Assembly (NCBI GenBank): GCA_902783895.1
Contig: CACZST010000036.1
Location: 3,278 to 67,277 of the forward strand
DNA: 64,000 nucleotides
From: an uncultured Erysipelotrichaceae bacterium
Lineage (GTDB): Bacteria > Bacillota_I > Bacilli_A > RF39 > UBA660
Direction of reading: 5' to 3'
The notes beneath the pieces were generated by a model. That model did no database searches. It was not told the DNA's origin and saw nothing but the letters and a program-made list of their open reading frames with translations. Below are positions 29,746-36,962 of this stretch, piece after piece. Numbering within the stretch: position 1 is the first letter of the stretch; each line of letters opens with the position of its first letter. Made by a program: the position numbers and the translations under genes.

Positions 29746-29769
29746 TTTTACTAACCTCCTTTGCTGTAT

Positions 29770-29798
29770 ATTATAGCAAACATTTGTTCATATATCAA
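29770..29798 (-). promoter_or_regulatory. dinD promoter with LexA (Cheo-type) box in the spacer
   Basis: Minus strand TTGATA - 17 nt - TATAAT. The spacer contains GAACAAATGTTT (plus 29778..29789), i.e. GAAC-N4-GTTC with one mismatch. Confidence 0.6.
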
Positions 29799-30343
29799 TA
29801 TTTCTATAAGTAATTATCCACTTTATGTACTATGTAGTTTTTTTGAAAATACACAATTAATGTGTAATAAGTTTCAAAAACATATATAATATCTTCCTAA
29901 ACAATTTGTTTGTAATTAAATAGGAATTTTAAATGGTGAATTACTGCCATCTATCTTATGAAGATATATTAAAAATATTGAATTGTTATTACATTAAATC
30001 CGATGATATTGTATTAACCAGTGATTTATTAAAATAATAAAAAATACTTATAGCCACAAACTATAAATATTTTCGACAAACAAATTGCCATAAATGAATC
30101 ATTATCTATAATGTGGGCGTTGTGCACTTAGTTTTAAAAAATGTACAATTCCTACACTTTTTGACGTGGAACAAAAGTCCTTCGTCGATATATAATATAC
30201 CATATTTTTCGGTTTTTGTTCACTTTTTTTCTTTAAGCGATTAAAAAATCATTTTATTTAGCGATTGTTTATGTTTCATTGATATTAAATGATAGTTTCA
30301 ATCTAACTTATATTCTGGTTATTATTTGATGATTTATTACAAA

Positions 30344-31747
30344 TTATTTATTATTTTCTTCCCAGTATAATCGCATTTCTATAGGGGTCCAACCATTATT
30401 TTCCCATACTATTGAATTGTTATATATGTCCATCAAGTAGTTTAATATTTCTTGGGCATTTTTTTCTGTTACTTCTAATCCATAATATTGAAGCATTTCT
30501 AGTGATGCTCCTACAAATGAATTTCCTAGTCTATACATATCGGAAATTTTTTTTATAATAGTTTCAATAATATCTGATGGAATATTCTTTCCATTTAGGT
30601 ATTTTTTAAATTTGTTTTTTGATTCAGTTTCTTCATAGTAATCATAATTAGAGTACTTGAGCAATTTTTCTAGTTTAATTGGCTTCTTTTTTATGTTTTT
30701 TTGTCTTGATACAATATTATCTAATAATGATTCTAAATCATCATAGTTTAATAATTTGTGAATAAAATACATATTTTTGTCCGTATCAATTCTATCTATA
30801 TTATCTGCCCTTTCACAAAAGAATAATGTATTATCTTGAACATTAACTTTTTTATCTTTATTATAGTATAAACTATAATAATAATTTAAATCATTATCTG
30901 AAACTACACCATATAATTCGACCATCGACCTAACTAAATAATAAATTTTACTATTCTCATCTACTATTTTTTGAAATTTGTTTAATTCTATTTTTTTTAT
31001 GATATTGTAAACATCATCTGTCATTGATATATAGAATTTATTTCCTCTTCTGAACAAAAATACTACACCTATCATGTATAGAAAATGATACTCTTCAATA
31101 TTTATATTATTATCCTGAATAGTTCCTTTGTTTGATATTATTCTTTTTAATAAGTTAAACTCCTTATCTATAAGTCTGTCAATTAAATCTGTCAATTTAT
31201 CTTTATCAGTAAGTGCATTGTAAATAATTTTAACAAGTTCTTTTTTAGGTTTATTACTTAATTTATTGACAAGTAATAAATCGCCTATATATTTTAAGTC
31301 TCTAATAGTTAATGCTGTAAGAAGTTTTTTTAAATCTTTAATTATTGGCGTGTTAGCAGCGTTTTCTAAATTAAATTTTTCTTCTGGGCTCATAGTGCCT
31401 AACAGTTTAACTATTATTTCCTTTATTTCTGTGGGTATGTAATAAGAATAATGATTACCATTTTTATATATAAAAACAAATAATGATTCTATATCTTGTT
31501 CATACGCGGACATCCACGTTGAATTTTCGTTTTTAACTAACTTTTCAAAATATATTTTAGTAAATGGATCATCATTTGAGTATTCTAAACACGTTTCAAA
31601 AGTTTCTATAATATATTCTTTTAGTTCATATATATCATCAACACCAAAGTCTTGAATTTTTTCGTTAAGCAATTTTTTATCTAATTTTTTCAATGATGAT
31701 AGTAAGTCTAATTTGTCTTTTTTTATTAAATATTTTTTACAATTCAT
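30344..31747 (-). CDS. hypothetical protein (467 aa), helical, no catalytic motif seen
   Basis: ORF track. Starts 4 nt after the upstream small gene. Possible SAP/Rho_N-like helix-hairpin 'LTIRDLKYIGDLLLVNKLSNKPKKELVKIIYNAL'. Confidence 0.5.
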   Translation of the reverse strand: MNCKKYLIKKDKLDLLSSLKKLDKKLLNEKIQDFGVDDIYELKEYIIETFETCLEYSNDDPFTKIYFEKLVKNENSTWMSAYEQDIESLFVFIYKNGNHYSYYIPTEIKEIIVKLLGTMSPEEKFNLENAANTPIIKDLKKLLTALTIRDLKYIGDLLLVNKLSNKPKKELVKIIYNALTDKDKLTDLIDRLIDKEFNLLKRIISNKGTIQDNNINIEEYHFLYMIGVVFLFRRGNKFYISMTDDVYNIIKKIELNKFQKIVDENSKIYYLVRSMVELYGVVSDNDLNYYYSLYYNKDKKVNVQDNTLFFCERADNIDRIDTDKNMYFIHKLLNYDDLESLLDNIVSRQKNIKKKPIKLEKLLKYSNYDYYEETESKNKFKKYLNGKNIPSDIIETIIKKISDMYRLGNSFVGASLEMLQYYGLEVTEKNAQEILNYLMDIYNNSIVWENNGWTPIEMRLYWEENNK

Positions 31748-31751
31748 TGTT

Positions 31752-32012
31752 TTACTCCTCTTTCAAATATTTATCTATTAATTTTTCAGCGAGCTGTTCT
31801 CCTTCTTTTGTTATAGTAACAGATTTTCCTTTACTATGATATAAATATCTATCATCAGTCAATTTATTTATCACACTAAATGAATAACCTTTCCAGCATC
31901 TTTTAACATTTCCCTCCTCTATTTCACCATCATCATTAGCTACATATCCTTTTTCTTCCCACGATGTTAAATACATAAGTAATAATGTTAATTCCTCAAT
32001 GTTTTTGTTCAT
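31752..32012 (-). CDS. small DUF6429-like protein (86 aa)
   Basis: 'LLLMYLTSWEE...CWKGYSFSVINKL...SKGKSVTITKEGEQLAEKLIDKYL'. GGGAG 8 nt upstream of ATG 32012. Family name is from memory. Confidence 0.45.
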   Translation of the reverse strand: MNKNIEELTLLLMYLTSWEEKGYVANDDGEIEEGNVKRCWKGYSFSVINKLTDDRYLYHSKGKSVTITKEGEQLAEKLIDKYLKEE

Positions 32013-32177
32013 AAATAATACTCCCATATAAAATTTTGCAATATATAATTTTTAAATAATATATTGAATATAACATTATTATATCATGCATAAAGACGCT
32101 TAGTAAATTTATAGGTTTGTGAAATACTTATTTTTTAGTATATGTAGAATTTTTAAAAGAAAAATGCAATATTGATA

Positions 32178-33239: not shown

Positions 33240-33304
33240 TTTTATTATATATTAAATTATAAATTATAAAAAACTCTTTACACTAACAAGTGAATAGCTT
33301 GATA

Positions 33305-33610
33305 TCAGTCTACAAAATATGTATGTTTAACTTTCCATTTTTTAATGGCAATTACTACCCATAATATGTAAATTCCAAATGTTATAACACATAAAAGTAA
33401 CCATTTAATCCAATTTCCAAATAGTTGCATTGCAGTACCATCAAATCTTAATCTTTTTCCTTCTATCACTGTATGTTTAATCTCCCAGTTATACACCATA
33501 CAAATAGCCCATGGATAGCAAATACCAAAAGTACATATTGTAATTAATCCTCCTAGTAATTTCCATCCGATCAATTGTAGTAATCCTCCATCAAAATATG
33601 ATTTTTCCAT
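33305..33610 (-). CDS. small membrane protein, DUF898/YjgN-like
   Basis: Two or three TM helices. 'TFGICYPWAICMVYNW' and 'ITFGIYILW' recall the DUF898 'TLGIYxPWA' repeat. Confidence 0.4.
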   Translation of the reverse strand: MEKSYFDGGLLQLIGWKLLGGLITICTFGICYPWAICMVYNWEIKHTVIEGKRLRFDGTAMQLFGNWIKWLLLCVITFGIYILWVVIAIKKWKVKHTYFVD

Positions 33611-33783
33611 AAAACACCTCTTTCACTAAATCAATTATATCATGTATGGTAATTAACTTAAAGATATAAAAGTATTATTATCTTTATATAATTGTTAATA
33701 TTGTTATTTAAGATTCATACTATTAATTTGACTTAGATTAAATAACGTGATATTTTATTGTATTAATTTGAAAGGGGTATTTT

Positions 33784-34812
33784 ATGTCTAACAGATGGAA
33801 AATTGTAGATGTTTCATATAAAATAATTGATAGAATGGAAAAGGATTTAGAAATTAATAGTGAGGCATATAAATTAATCGGATATCTTAATAAATTGGTT
33901 TCTAATGATTTAGATACTTATGGTGAATTTGGCAATTATTATGATATTTTTATAGAAGTGACAAAAAGATTATTTTATAGTGGTGAACTTATTAGGTCTT
34001 TTAGAATTCCTGATAATAAGTATTATAAAAGACAAATAGAAGTGTATAAAAATTTACCATTTACAAATCATCAAAATTGGAATAATTATTTACTTAAAAT
34101 ATTATCTTTAAGGGTGCCAAATGATGTTTATAAAAATTCATATAAAACATTTGAATATATAATTAAAAATTATAATTGCCATAATATTTGTTTGCAGTAT
34201 GAAGAGGTAAAAAATGTATTAGATTTTGCGGATAAAAATGAGGCTATTATACTTGCGAGCAAGGATGAATATTTTGAACTTGGAAAAGAAAAAGAATTAT
34301 ATAATAAAGCTAAAGATGGAAAATCTTTTAGTCAGTTAGATGAATTTAGAGAAATTAATAATTTAAACAGTAAGAGTGATGATGCAGTTAGGAAAGATTT
34401 TATATTTAAAAGAATTGGTAATATTGGTGAGATATGCACTTTTGATAAACTTAGTAAGTTAGATTTACCAATAATATTTGTCGCAAGAGATATTAAAAAC
34501 GGATTTGGATATGATATATATTTATCTGATGAAGAAGAAAAAGAAAATTTAATTGAAGTTAAATCTACAGTTAATCTTTCAAATAATAATTTTTTTAAAA
34601 TAAGTGAAAATGAATTAAATAAAGTAGAAGAAGCTTCAAAGAATGAATTTGCTAGATATATTATATGCAGAGTTAAGTTAAACAGTTTATTAGAACCTAA
34701 TTTCGAATTTTTGAGTAAAACATCTGAGGATACTTTTTCTAGTATTGATGGAAGTAATCATAAATATAAAGCAAAAATTTTAGAAAAAAGATTATTTAAG
34801 CAATTTAAATGA
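33784..34812 (+). CDS. DUF3883-like PD-(D/E)xK nuclease-fold protein, paralog A
   Basis: C-terminal block 'KRIGNIGEICTFDKL...GFGYDIYL...LIEVKST...FKISENEL...YIICRV' (GxxGE ... D ... ExK layout). N-terminal ~200 aa is unknown. Confidence 0.6.
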   Translation: MSNRWKIVDVSYKIIDRMEKDLEINSEAYKLIGYLNKLVSNDLDTYGEFGNYYDIFIEVTKRLFYSGELIRSFRIPDNKYYKRQIEVYKNLPFTNHQNWNNYLLKILSLRVPNDVYKNSYKTFEYIIKNYNCHNICLQYEEVKNVLDFADKNEAIILASKDEYFELGKEKELYNKAKDGKSFSQLDEFREINNLNSKSDDAVRKDFIFKRIGNIGEICTFDKLSKLDLPIIFVARDIKNGFGYDIYLSDEEEKENLIEVKSTVNLSNNNFFKISENELNKVEEASKNEFARYIICRVKLNSLLEPNFEFLSKTSEDTFSSIDGSNHKYKAKILEKRLFKQFK

Positions 34813-34852
34813 AATAATAAGTATTATTTATATTAGTTTAAGGAGAATATAT

Positions 34853-35854
34853 ATGACGGAAAATGAATTTATTGATAAAACATATAAACTTGCACATTAT
34901 ATAAAATGTAATGAAAAATCTACACGTTACATCGGAACAATCACAAAGGATGTAAGGAATTTCATTTTGGATAATCCAGATAATGATATAGTTATTAAAT
35001 TTGTTAAAGATACTGTTAATTATATTTTAGAATTGTTTAATAATGATATTTTTAATGACAATTTAAATAAATTTAATAATTTGTTTTATAGAAGGCAAAT
35101 TGAAATATGTAATTTCTTAAAGCTTCACATAAATAATGAATATGGTAATTGTGTTTGTTATTTAAAGAACTTGTTTAATATACCATGGGAATATAATGAT
35201 AATATATTTATTGAAACTTTATATATTTTAAATCATTATAGCTCTTATTTATCAAATAATTTAATTGAAAGAAATTTTCGAGATTTTATGAATAATAATA
35301 GGATAGTTAGTCCGTTTACTTTAGAAAATTATTATAAAGATTTAGATGAAGAAAAGAAATTTTATAACGATCCTCAAGAAAAAGAAATAATTGATTATGG
35401 TTATATAAATCATGTAATGGACTGTAATGCGGTCAAAATAAGATATATGAATAAAAGAATTGGTAATATCGGTGAATTCTATACATTAGATAGATTTAAA
35501 AAATTTGGCGAATGCATATTTGTTTCAAAAGATTTGAGCGAATTATTTGGATATGATATATACTTTTTAGATAAATATAATATTGAAAATTTACTTGAAG
35601 TTAAAACTACTACTAATAGTAATAATGGATTTTTTATAAGTGAAAATGAACTTTCTGTTGCTTTAGAAAGTAAAGTAAAAGGTGCTAAATATGTTTTATG
35701 TAGAGTTGTACTAGATAGTTTATTAAATCCGTCGTTTAGTTTTCTTAACTTAATCGATGAAGAAACTTTCTGTCAAATTGATAAGCCTGATGGAAAATTA
35801 TATAAGCGTGATTCAGATGAAGATGGTAAAATTTTATTTAAAAAATACCGTTAA
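34853..35854 (+). CDS. DUF3883-like PD-(D/E)xK nuclease-fold protein, paralog B
   Basis: 'KRIGNIGEFYTLDRF...LFGYDIYF...LLEVKTT...FFISENEL...YVLCRV', collinear with paralog A. Starts 40 nt after A. Confidence 0.6.
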   Translation: MTENEFIDKTYKLAHYIKCNEKSTRYIGTITKDVRNFILDNPDNDIVIKFVKDTVNYILELFNNDIFNDNLNKFNNLFYRRQIEICNFLKLHINNEYGNCVCYLKNLFNIPWEYNDNIFIETLYILNHYSSYLSNNLIERNFRDFMNNNRIVSPFTLENYYKDLDEEKKFYNDPQEKEIIDYGYINHVMDCNAVKIRYMNKRIGNIGEFYTLDRFKKFGECIFVSKDLSELFGYDIYFLDKYNIENLLEVKTTTNSNNGFFISENELSVALESKVKGAKYVLCRVVLDSLLNPSFSFLNLIDEETFCQIDKPDGKLYKRDSDEDGKILFKKYR

Positions 35855-35862
35855 CAAAAAAA

Positions 35863-35878
35863 AGAAACAGGAGTTTCT
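35863..35878. terminator. bidirectional terminator between paralog B and the SWIM gene
   Basis: agaaac-agga-gtttct flanked by A8 and T8 runs. Confidence 0.65.
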
Positions 35879-35882
35879 TTTT

Positions 35883-36911
35883 TTAATTGTAATTATCAAT
35901 ATAATCATTTATTTGTTTTGTTAATATTTCATCTTCACTATCTTCTAAAACTTTCCAGTTACATATATCATTTTCAATAATTGGAACTAGTTCAATTCCC
36001 CCATTATTTATTATTTCAAAACATCCATGAGAAATGCCTAAGCATAAGTAGTAATTAAAGTTTTCTACTACCTCTAATAGGTTTTCGTTAGAATTTGCAA
36101 ACATTATTTTAAAGAAACGGTTATATTTATTATTTCTTATGGCAAGTATGCTTGCGCATATATGCTTACAATAAAATTCACATGGGCAGCTACAATATAC
36201 TTGAGTAAGTTTTTCTTCTTCATTATATTTAATTATTACAACGTATTTTTCTTCCCCTTCTACTATAGAAAAATATTTATCCTCTATTTTTTCTAAATAT
36301 TTTACTTTATTTTCAAGATAATAATTCTCCCCTCTTTCTAAAATTTTTGAAGAAAATAGTTTATCCAAATTCTCATTAAACAAATCAAAGGAGAATTCTT
36401 TTTTATATTCATATTTTTCTTTTGTTCCTGTTACTTCAGCAAGTAATTCATAAAGAAAATTTTCTAGTTTTTTAGGCAGATTTTGGAAAATAATTACAAA
36501 TAAATCAGATAAATAGGACTGTGACTTTGGCAGGTATTTATTAAAGTTTAAATTAACTTTTTCATTATTTTTAGTTTTAATATTAATATTTAATTTAACT
36601 AAATCTTTTTTATTTAGATTATCATTTTTTTCTTTTATAAAATAGCTAAAACAATAATTAGTTATATCATTAATTAGATTTTCATTTATATATTCATAGT
36701 TTATATATTTATCTATTTTATTTTCATCTATTATATTTAAATCAAACCAAGATAATTTATATGACTTAGCTTTTTTAATATAATTAATCGTTATATAAAA
36801 GTAAAATCCATCATAATCTAAAAGTGATAATTCTAGATATGTTTTATCTTTTTTGAAATACTTTTTTATTTTTTCTATTTTTTTAAGGTTTTTATTATAT
36901 TCTTCATTCAT
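35883..36911 (-). CDS. SWIM zinc-finger domain protein
   Basis: 'RGENYYLENKV...YVVIIKY...VYCSCPCEFYCKHICASILAI' fits the CxCxnCxH SWIM signature. GGAGG 8 nt upstream of ATG 36911. Confidence 0.65.
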   Translation of the reverse strand: MNEEYNKNLKKIEKIKKYFKKDKTYLELSLLDYDGFYFYITINYIKKAKSYKLSWFDLNIIDENKIDKYINYEYINENLINDITNYCFSYFIKEKNDNLNKKDLVKLNINIKTKNNEKVNLNFNKYLPKSQSYLSDLFVIIFQNLPKKLENFLYELLAEVTGTKEKYEYKKEFSFDLFNENLDKLFSSKILERGENYYLENKVKYLEKIEDKYFSIVEGEEKYVVIIKYNEEEKLTQVYCSCPCEFYCKHICASILAIRNNKYNRFFKIMFANSNENLLEVVENFNYYLCLGISHGCFEIINNGGIELVPIIENDICNWKVLEDSEDEILTKQINDYIDNYN

Positions 36912-36945
36912 AGTATTAACCTCCAAGCTAATTATATAAAAAAAT

Positions 36946-36962
36946 CTAGTTTTAAACTAGAT
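36946..36962 (-). terminator. obg terminator
   Basis: tctagttt-t-aaactaga abutting the obg stop, with a T-run on the - strand (plus A-run 36939..36945). Confidence 0.6.

Follow-up and report, generated by a model that had tools for sequence, protein, structure and literature searches.

Proteins with a DUF3883 domain, which was placed in the PD-(D/E)xK superfamily by Steczkiewicz et al. 2012 (PMC3424549), include the modification-dependent enzyme YenY4I, in which DUF3883 is the active catalytic domain (PMC6765204). In YenY4I and McaZI the DUF3883 catalytic module stands behind an N-terminal specificity module, and such enzymes are often stand-alone and often found in defence islands (PMC6765204). 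Experiments have demonstrated that HmaA is a Mn2+ nickase and that it defends by abortive infection; mutagenesis established that its D, ExK and alpha2-Glu residues are needed for both, and its domain of this type, now named NOV_C, has the Hjc structure 1GEF as closest structural match (PMC11232893). Single-gene PD-(D/E)xK defence is itself an established class, with Shedu, PD-T4-1 and Tiamat among its members (bioRxiv 10.1101/2024.10.26.620412). We here analyse two adjacent genes, A and B, from contig CACZST010000036.1 of an uncultured Erysipelotrichaceae bacterium, of which a stretch of 64,000 nucleotides (nt) was studied as a whole and is called the window below. We propose, with a probability of about 0.55, that A and B encode self-contained sensor-nuclease proteins for defence against phages or other mobile DNA, and that they are two divergent members of an unnamed family.

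The nuclease domain and the helical N-terminal domain

Gene A (33784-34812, 342 amino acids, aa) and gene B (34853-35854, 333 aa) lie on the forward strand; these and all further unprefixed coordinates are window positions, whereas L-numbers denote the genomic contexts that were collected and P-numbers the relatives of the family. An original prediction, drawn from the letters of this locus, had described A and B as paralogs of DUF3883 type lying next to a SWIM zinc-finger gene and a DUF898-like gene. The open reading frames (ORFs) of all four sit where it had put them and have the lengths it gave, and the domain assignment holds as well: PF13020 (NOV_C, the present name of DUF3883 in Pfam, of clan PD-(D/E)xK) matches A with 38.2 bits and B with 38.1 bits, above the gathering cutoff of 22.1 bits. 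The motifs that had been quoted (KRIGNIGE, GYDIY, EVK, SENE and Y..CRV) are present, and they are invariant or nearly so in an alignment of 22 family sequences. Strictly invariant, in the numbering of A, are G212-N-I-G-E216, G242-Y-D244, E258, K260, T262, E277 and Y292. Conservation of the D, E and K residues among homologs, on which the prediction had been made to hinge, is therefore observed in all 22 sequences, and both A and B keep the full catalytic set of E216, D244, E258, K260 and E277. Residues D244, E258, K260 and E277 of A correspond to D1084, E1104, K1106 and E1121 of HmaA.

The AlphaFold2 model of A is a confident one (predicted local distance difference test score, pLDDT, 89.1; predicted template modelling score, pTM, 0.87). 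Its residues 1-195 are all-helical, a long helix (199-226) bears the GNIGE motif, and the remainder forms an alpha/beta core. In Foldseek, archaeal Hjc resolvases came out best for this core (template modelling score 0.55-0.60 on the target, probability 1.0, E-value about 5e-3), and the nuclease domain of SPARDA as well as HincII were also matched. Viral Hjc/RecU-like proteins were found in the same way in BFVD. The PD-(D/E)xK fold that had been claimed for the C-terminal block is thus recovered from structure prediction, and the C-terminal third of A is modelled with confidence as an Hjc-type fold of this class.

In front of the nuclease lies a domain of about 195 residues for which the prediction of an unrecognisable helical region likewise stood up, as it is all-helical in the model and has no relative in our searches. 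Pfam, NCBIfam, PHROGs and PADLOC yielded no match to it, neither phmmer nor a profile search returned any match for the A and B proteins among all PDB sequences, and Foldseek with the full model of A gave nothing credible outside the nuclease domain. Identity between A and B falls steeply from the core towards the N-terminus, being 51% in the nuclease core, 24% over residues 76-195 and 10% over residues 1-75. The N-terminus is hence hypervariable and the effector conserved, a pattern that, together with the architecture of the proteins, would suit a sensor function of the N-terminal domain.

The family to which A and B belong is small. A word-index search of 5.8 billion proteins gave 21 relatives, all but one of which carry PF13020, and an exhaustive profile search of 1.84 billion representatives gave 79 clusters at E<=1e-30 and about 100 full-length clusters in total (clusters at 50% identity), every one of them 320-380 aa long. 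Full-length members come only from metagenome-assembled genomes (MAGs) of uncultured gut or rumen "Bacilli" or "Tenericutes", and more remote matches have nothing but the nuclease core in common with the family. No relatives were found in 2.9 million viral contigs, 50,697 phage records or 72,556 plasmids. In about 20 of 27 contexts, collected from three sources, the family gene stands singly, and all-against-all clustering of the neighbours in these contexts revealed no partner family that recurs beyond what shared synteny accounts for. None of the sources examined names these full-length proteins, and no PADLOC or Pfam model spans their length. The description of the locus as new is therefore right for the full-length family and too broad for the principle, since single-protein candidates with a NOV_C-type core have been catalogued before (PDC-S36, PD-T4-1, Tiamat TmtA and HmaA). 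The best-supported view is that A and B belong to a small, unnamed family of self-contained nuclease proteins.

The combination of a catalytic NOV_C domain with another domain in front of it recalls type IV restriction, and it could be that A and B are stand-alone modification-dependent endonucleases whose N-terminus reads modified or glucosylated DNA while NOV_C cuts, so that the two genes would cover two types of modification. The domain is catalytic in YenY4I and McaZI, which also occur stand-alone (PMC6765204), the island around A and B holds no cognate methyltransferase, and a NOV_C protein with a different N-terminal domain lies beside family genes in two contexts (L019 and L040). However, the N-terminus of A and B matches no known modification reader (PUA, SRA, DUF3427 and others) either by Pfam or by fold, and a purely alpha-helical domain would be an unusual reader of DNA modifications. 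Type IV restriction would be a special form of the defence role discussed here, one with a defined trigger, and we consider it an unlikely explanation.

In the sensor-nuclease reading that we prefer, a polypeptide of about 340 aa would join a fast-evolving helical N-terminal domain to a conserved NOV_C domain acting as a metal-dependent DNA nuclease or nickase. The foreign cue sensed by the N-terminal domain would be a phage protein or an unusual form or modification of DNA, for instance, unless that domain restrained the nuclease instead; the C-terminal domain would nick or cut DNA, probably as a homo-oligomer like its Hjc-type relatives. A and B would be expressed from one promoter on a transcript ending at a weak hairpin shared with the convergent gene, the tandem providing two specificities. 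A defence role of this kind is plausible. If it is real, a compact single-protein immune nuclease of about 340 aa with a previously unseen helical recognition domain would join the NOV_C-based defences, and it would come from uncultured gut Bacilli and "Tenericutes", whose defence repertoire has barely been explored. The pairing of a variable N-terminus with a constant nuclease would moreover offer a natural system in which to follow how recognition specificities evolve.

Paired genes and the convergent SWIM gene

BLASTP confirms the predicted paralogy of A and B (36% identity over 273 aa, E=2e-34), and a nucleotide alignment of their nuclease cores still shows 74% identity along 102 nt. A recent tandem duplication was considered and rejected, because A is more similar to the lone gene P0002 (189 bits) than to B (116 bits). 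Similarly, B scores 135 bits to P0008 against 116 to A, its best relatives being P0008 and P0002. By these sequence comparisons A and B are true but old paralogs and not sister genes.

The two genes are separated by a gap of 40 nt, in which neither a terminator scan nor reading of the sequence revealed a hairpin or a terminator-like site. Since the spacer lacks a hairpin, co-transcription is probable and A and B are probably carried on one transcript. A candidate promoter for it, recognised as a pattern match by consensus scan and reading, lies at 33728-33756 on the forward strand (TTGACT, 17 nt, and TG-n-TATTTT with an extended -10). Putative ribosome-binding sites read from the sequence precede A (AAAGGGG, 33771-33777) and B (AGGAG, 34841-34845, 7 nt ahead of the ATG). 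Downstream of B, a perfect 12-nt inverted repeat with a 4-nt loop occupies 35857-35884 (AAAAAAAGAAAC-agga-GTTTCTTTTTTT), with an A-run and a T-run on its flanks. The bidirectional terminator that had been proposed here is thus present as a perfect repeat; it is, however, weak and AT-rich, and was not called by the consensus terminator scan, which needs at least three G-C pairs. This AT-rich hairpin could serve as a terminator both for B and for the convergent SWIM gene.

Close spacing invites a second explanation of the pair, in which A and B would form an obligate hetero-oligomer, either a split sensor and effector or an active and a regulatory subunit. Hjc-type nucleases act as dimers. This dimeric action, the 40-nt spacer with its probable co-transcription, and the intactness of both A and B in 14 of 14 strains are all in keeping with such an arrangement. 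Adjacent pairs recur, in addition, outside the window: a tandem same-strand pair with a gap of 32 nt is found in L020, and divergent paralog pairs in L053/L057 and in L052. Some of these pairs contain a degenerate copy. In L053m and L057m (L053:3328-4356, L057:7021-8046) the catalytic Glu is replaced (IKIK for EVK) and the GNIGE motif is lost, and L020a (L020:8232-9347) has an E to Q change in the helix motif (KINNIAQ); the pair partners of all these copies are intact. The degenerate copies could be regulatory or decoy subunits, or simply decaying duplicates.

Against an obligate hetero-oligomer stands first the fact that some 20 of 27 contexts hold single genes, from which it follows that the chassis works alone. 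L009 with one copy and L020 with two have upstream genes in common, so that copy number varies at what is one chromosomal site. Similarity within pairs exceeds similarity between pairs, indicating that pairs arose more than once and that no conserved A-type and B-type subfamilies exist. Finally, both copies in the window keep full catalytic sets. An obligate partnership of A and B is therefore doubtful. Of the two possibilities that the original prediction had left side by side, heteromeric sensor and effector or two specificity variants, the evidence leans towards the latter, and the tandem in the window most likely represents two recognition specificities on one effector chassis.

The prediction had gone further and had grouped A and B with the convergent SWIM gene, and perhaps with the DUF898-like gene, in a single multi-gene defence module. 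The SWIM gene (35883-36911, reverse strand) converges with B. Its ORF, if counted from a TTG, spans 35883-36926, and an ATG at 36911 with GGAGG 8 nt upstream gives a protein of 342 aa, which is also the length called for it in all related contigs. The zinc finger that had been noticed is real: PF04434 is matched (21.6 versus 19.6 bits), and C240, C242, C244 and H250 are invariant in 37 homologs. Foldseek with the AlphaFold2 model of the protein matched only the SWIM region of ZSWIM8. The DUF898-like gene (33305-33610, reverse strand, divergent from A) encodes a two-helix membrane protein of 101 aa, matched by Pfam DUF898/DUF6693 (37.5 versus 28 bits), so that this assignment also stands.

What speaks for a module is that, in the window as in every contig of its species, the genes lie next to one another with a hairpin in common, and that the SWIM region has weak matches to PADLOC PDC-S62 and DpdE, in both cases at the N-terminus. 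The distribution of the genes argues otherwise. The arrangement is seen in the species of the window only, and in about 20 other contexts the family gene is either alone or accompanied by a paralog, never by SWIM. Conversely, SWIM homologs occur in three unrelated contexts without NOV_C (L012-L015). The SWIM family, of constant length (about 343 aa), comprises more than 250 clusters at 50-64% identity, as opposed to about 100 for the NOV_C family. In the window, the SWIM gene lies 3' of obg on the same strand and has a ribosome-binding site of its own. Homologs of the DUF898-like protein fall into at least 2,572 clusters (74-86% identity) spread over the Firmicutes. Of the roughly 27 contexts, 3 have such a gene in the vicinity of the family gene, the copy in L009 being 69% identical to that in the window. 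Because the protein is so widespread in Firmicutes, its proximity is considered incidental. Both candidates were accordingly rejected as partners of A and B, SWIM on its distribution and the DUF898-like protein as ubiquitous and highly conserved. The module is largely refuted by distribution and we regard it as highly improbable. Adjacency inside one species does not make a module, and it would be wrong to annotate the SWIM or the DUF898-like gene as a partner of A and B.

Elsewhere the SWIM gene is placed sporadically. It follows a Metallophos phosphoesterase gene in two of the contexts examined (L012:4720-8969, L014:6295-8032, L015:7001-8035), and in one context a DUF4238 gene comes next, after a gap of 13 nt, and with it a type I restriction-modification operon.

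Genomic surroundings and variation within the species

A general feature of the family concerns orientation. Of the 19 contexts that include both flanks, 17 have the family gene antisense to the genes on either side, compared with 8% of control genes from the same loci (p=4e-17); against random orientation the excess has p=0.002 once shared sites are merged. Among the genes of these loci that do not belong to the family, 253 lie on the strand opposite to it and 32 on the same strand. The loci concerned include the window (33784-35854), L001:8001-9029, L017:9836-10894 and L018:9818-10909. Antisense placement may insulate the gene from read-through transcription or may set it head-on to replication, and as a feature of genome organisation it is open to testing.

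Defence genes are present in about half of the family neighbourhoods, a raw count that has no baseline. They include Abi_2 with DUF3800, a reverse transcriptase (RT) with PRTase-CE and NERD, and SIR2 with Mrr, and among 123 further neighbours PDC-S11, AbiEi, SspH, MzaB, AbiD, a GajB-like helicase and a DRT reverse transcriptase. A protein of 426 aa that has another N-terminal domain and a NOV_C-type C-terminus (EVKST, YYLYR) lies beside a family gene in two contexts (L019:15100-16766, L040:8056-9731), where it is preceded by a gene of 128-133 aa; different NOV_C nucleases can thus cluster together. We also noted an uncharacterised pair of a large (966-1183 aa) and a small (218-243 aa) gene that adjoins the family gene in three otherwise different contexts (L008:4331-7911, L010:1549-5831, which equals L011:3517-7799, and L046:2-924). 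Its members are 29-65% identical across these loci and have no match in Pfam or PADLOC. It could be another defence pair at the same hot spot, or an occasional partner. The 959-aa and 247-aa genes of the window were considered as a copy of this pair and rejected, as the 959-aa protein is DnaE and tblastn gave no match; the window thus lacks the pair.

Within the species of the window, the order obg, SWIM, B, A, DUF898-like, Fic, DUF6429, 467-aa gene and DinD-like was found in every contig, including two NCBI MAGs and samples from several studies. The block is therefore fixed in the species, and no relative with an empty site was found, all same-species contigs having the block and the species representative set containing no closer relative. 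A and B are each intact in 14 of 14 strain copies. The ratio of nonsynonymous to synonymous polymorphism (pN/pS) within the species is 0.41 for A, 0.89 for B, 0.20 for SWIM, 0.09 for Fic and 0.04 for obg, values that are rough, as they derive from only 12-19 segregating sites. B has 12 such sites and six alleles among its 14 copies. Its ratio of about 0.89 would fit either near-neutral drift or diversifying selection, between which so little variation does not separate. In two strains of the species (L084:2795-12586, L086:1148-6448) a block resembling a conjugative element, with DUF7695, ParB_N, a SpaA adhesin, sortase, SSB and a type IV secretion system pilin, adjoins the DUF898-like gene at the position of Fic. 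The presence of this block there marks the junction near 33300 of the window as a variable or integration site.

Several of these observations weigh against a sensor-nuclease role in defence. The block is fixed in the species and not variably present, and no route of mobility is evident, given the absence of the family from the phage, viral-contig and plasmid collections. Proximity to defence islands is frequent but not universal, and consists of raw counts that have no statistical baseline; several contexts are plainly of a housekeeping kind (ECF/ABC transporters, MatE, NUDIX and MMPL). The pN/pS of B, being close to 1, may reflect decay and not diversification. As to the proteins themselves, the matches that Foldseek gave for the nuclease domain have modest E-values (5e-3), metal-dependent nuclease activity would be attributed to A and B by analogy with other NOV_C proteins, the only ones in which activity has been shown, and the N-terminal domain would be a sensor by virtue of architecture and variability, having no recognisable ligand- or DNA-binding fold.

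Some of the same facts could be read as signs that A and B are not defence genes at all, but encode a lineage-specific repair or recombination nuclease of Hjc-like type, or are selfish, toxin-like or decaying duplicates. Holliday-junction resolvases are the best fold matches, the block is fixed in the species, several contexts are housekeeping ones, and the pN/pS of B is about 0.9. Nevertheless, the family is rare and its occurrence patchy (some 100 clusters among 1.8 billion representatives), the N-terminus is hypervariable, GC content is low, and the antisense placement is like that of an inserted gene. Defence genes are frequent as neighbours, all copies are intact with catalytic residues kept over deep divergence, and no conserved antitoxin-like neighbour is present. 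A role outside defence is therefore improbable, and the sensor-nuclease reading is retained.

Paralog pairs exist in four lineages including that of the window, and two of these have one copy lacking a catalytic or helix-motif Glu. It may thus be imagined that in some lineages the adjacent pair is a real unit, namely a heterodimeric NOV_C nuclease in which one of the two subunits gradually gives up catalysis to become a regulator or decoy, and that the near-universal antisense placement was selected to insulate a toxic nuclease from read-through transcription or to set it in head-on conflict with replication. With its helical sensor domain, for which no relative is known, the family would then be a new defence family of one or two proteins, specific to host-associated Bacilli with reduced genomes. 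We put this forward as speculation and think it quite unlikely as a whole.

The accessory island that had been predicted around A and B is apparent from its base composition and gene content. GC content is 21-25% over about 29.5-36.9 kb as against 31-34% in obg, and the low-GC stretch is bounded by a two-component system (26.7-28.6 kb) and by obg, which has its own hairpin and T7 run at 36938-36962. The absence of a methyltransferase, helicase or ATPase partner had also been noted correctly, as none is found among the island genes between 28.6 and 37 kb. There is no tRNA within the window, nor do repeats flank A and B. The Fic gene is recognised by Pfam (45.6 bits, cutoff 24 bits) and by PADLOC as PDC-S72 (262 bits). 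The DinD-like (Bro-N) gene at 28912-29745 matches NCBIfam PRK11525 (322 versus 242 bits) and PADLOC PDC-S13 (313 bits). It is intact in the window and broken into ORFs of 58 aa and 232 aa in two contigs of the same species (L074:8755-9592, L075:6299-7136), and is therefore decaying in some strains. Between Fic and DinD, at 30344-32027 on the reverse strand, a DUF6429 protein (91 aa) is followed after 4 nt by a protein of 467 aa, the latter with no match in Pfam, NCBIfam, PHROGs or PADLOC; the two genes likely form an operon, downstream of which about 600 nt (29746-30343) are non-coding. The best explanation for SWIM, DUF898-like, Fic and DinD-like is that they are separate accessory genes in one variable stretch between the two-component system and obg.

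Relation to known nuclease systems

An architecture of the same logic as that of A and B is found in Shedu (SduA), a single protein with a conserved C-terminal PD-(D/E)xK nuclease and a variable N-terminal regulatory or sensor domain. The Shedu nuclease, however, is DUF4263 and not NOV_C, and A and B match no DUF4263 or Shedu model in Pfam or PADLOC. PDC-S36, a PADLOC single-gene candidate of about 280 aa that is the best PADLOC match of both A and B, likewise has a C-terminal NOV_C-type core behind an N-terminal region of its own (about 185 aa). Over the full length the likeness fails: A and B cover profile positions 186-248 of 280 with about 32 bits, whereas true PDC-S36 members (L021, L023) cover positions 4-279 with 324-329 bits and have N-terminal domains unrelated to those of A and B. 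The PDC-S36 members were located in Bryobacterales and Proteobacteria, not in gut Bacilli. For PD-T4-1, A and B gave no match at E<=0.1, and their relative P0008 matches its C-terminal core with 31.8 bits.

In HmaA, NOV_C is joined to a Snf2 helicase; its nuclease domain, residue set and Hjc relative agree with those of A and B, which would work in like manner but without the helicase. HmaA is larger (about 1,190 aa) and its Snf2 helicase depends on ATP, whereas A and B contain no helicase or NTPase domain (Pfam, E<=0.1). Tiamat TmtA is larger still (1,300-1,800 aa, with an ATPase region), and A and B match only the last 60 or so positions of its profile, with 10-17 bits. The readers of YenY4I and McaZI are beta-rich domains of the PUA superfamily or DUF3427; A and B have neither, and their N-terminus is all-helical. 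Archaeal Hjc, the closest solved fold to the C-terminal 115 or so residues of A, is a protein of about 120 aa with a core role in recombination and no additional domain, and shares 15-19% sequence identity with A. The adjacent cognate methyltransferase of type II restriction-modification is lacking in the island, and lone family genes have no conserved methyltransferase neighbour; nor is there the conserved small partner of a toxin-antitoxin pair, no neighbour family recurring apart from shared synteny. A and B are thus best read as analogues of Shedu, PD-T4-1 and PDC-S36, standing beside these systems and belonging to none of them.

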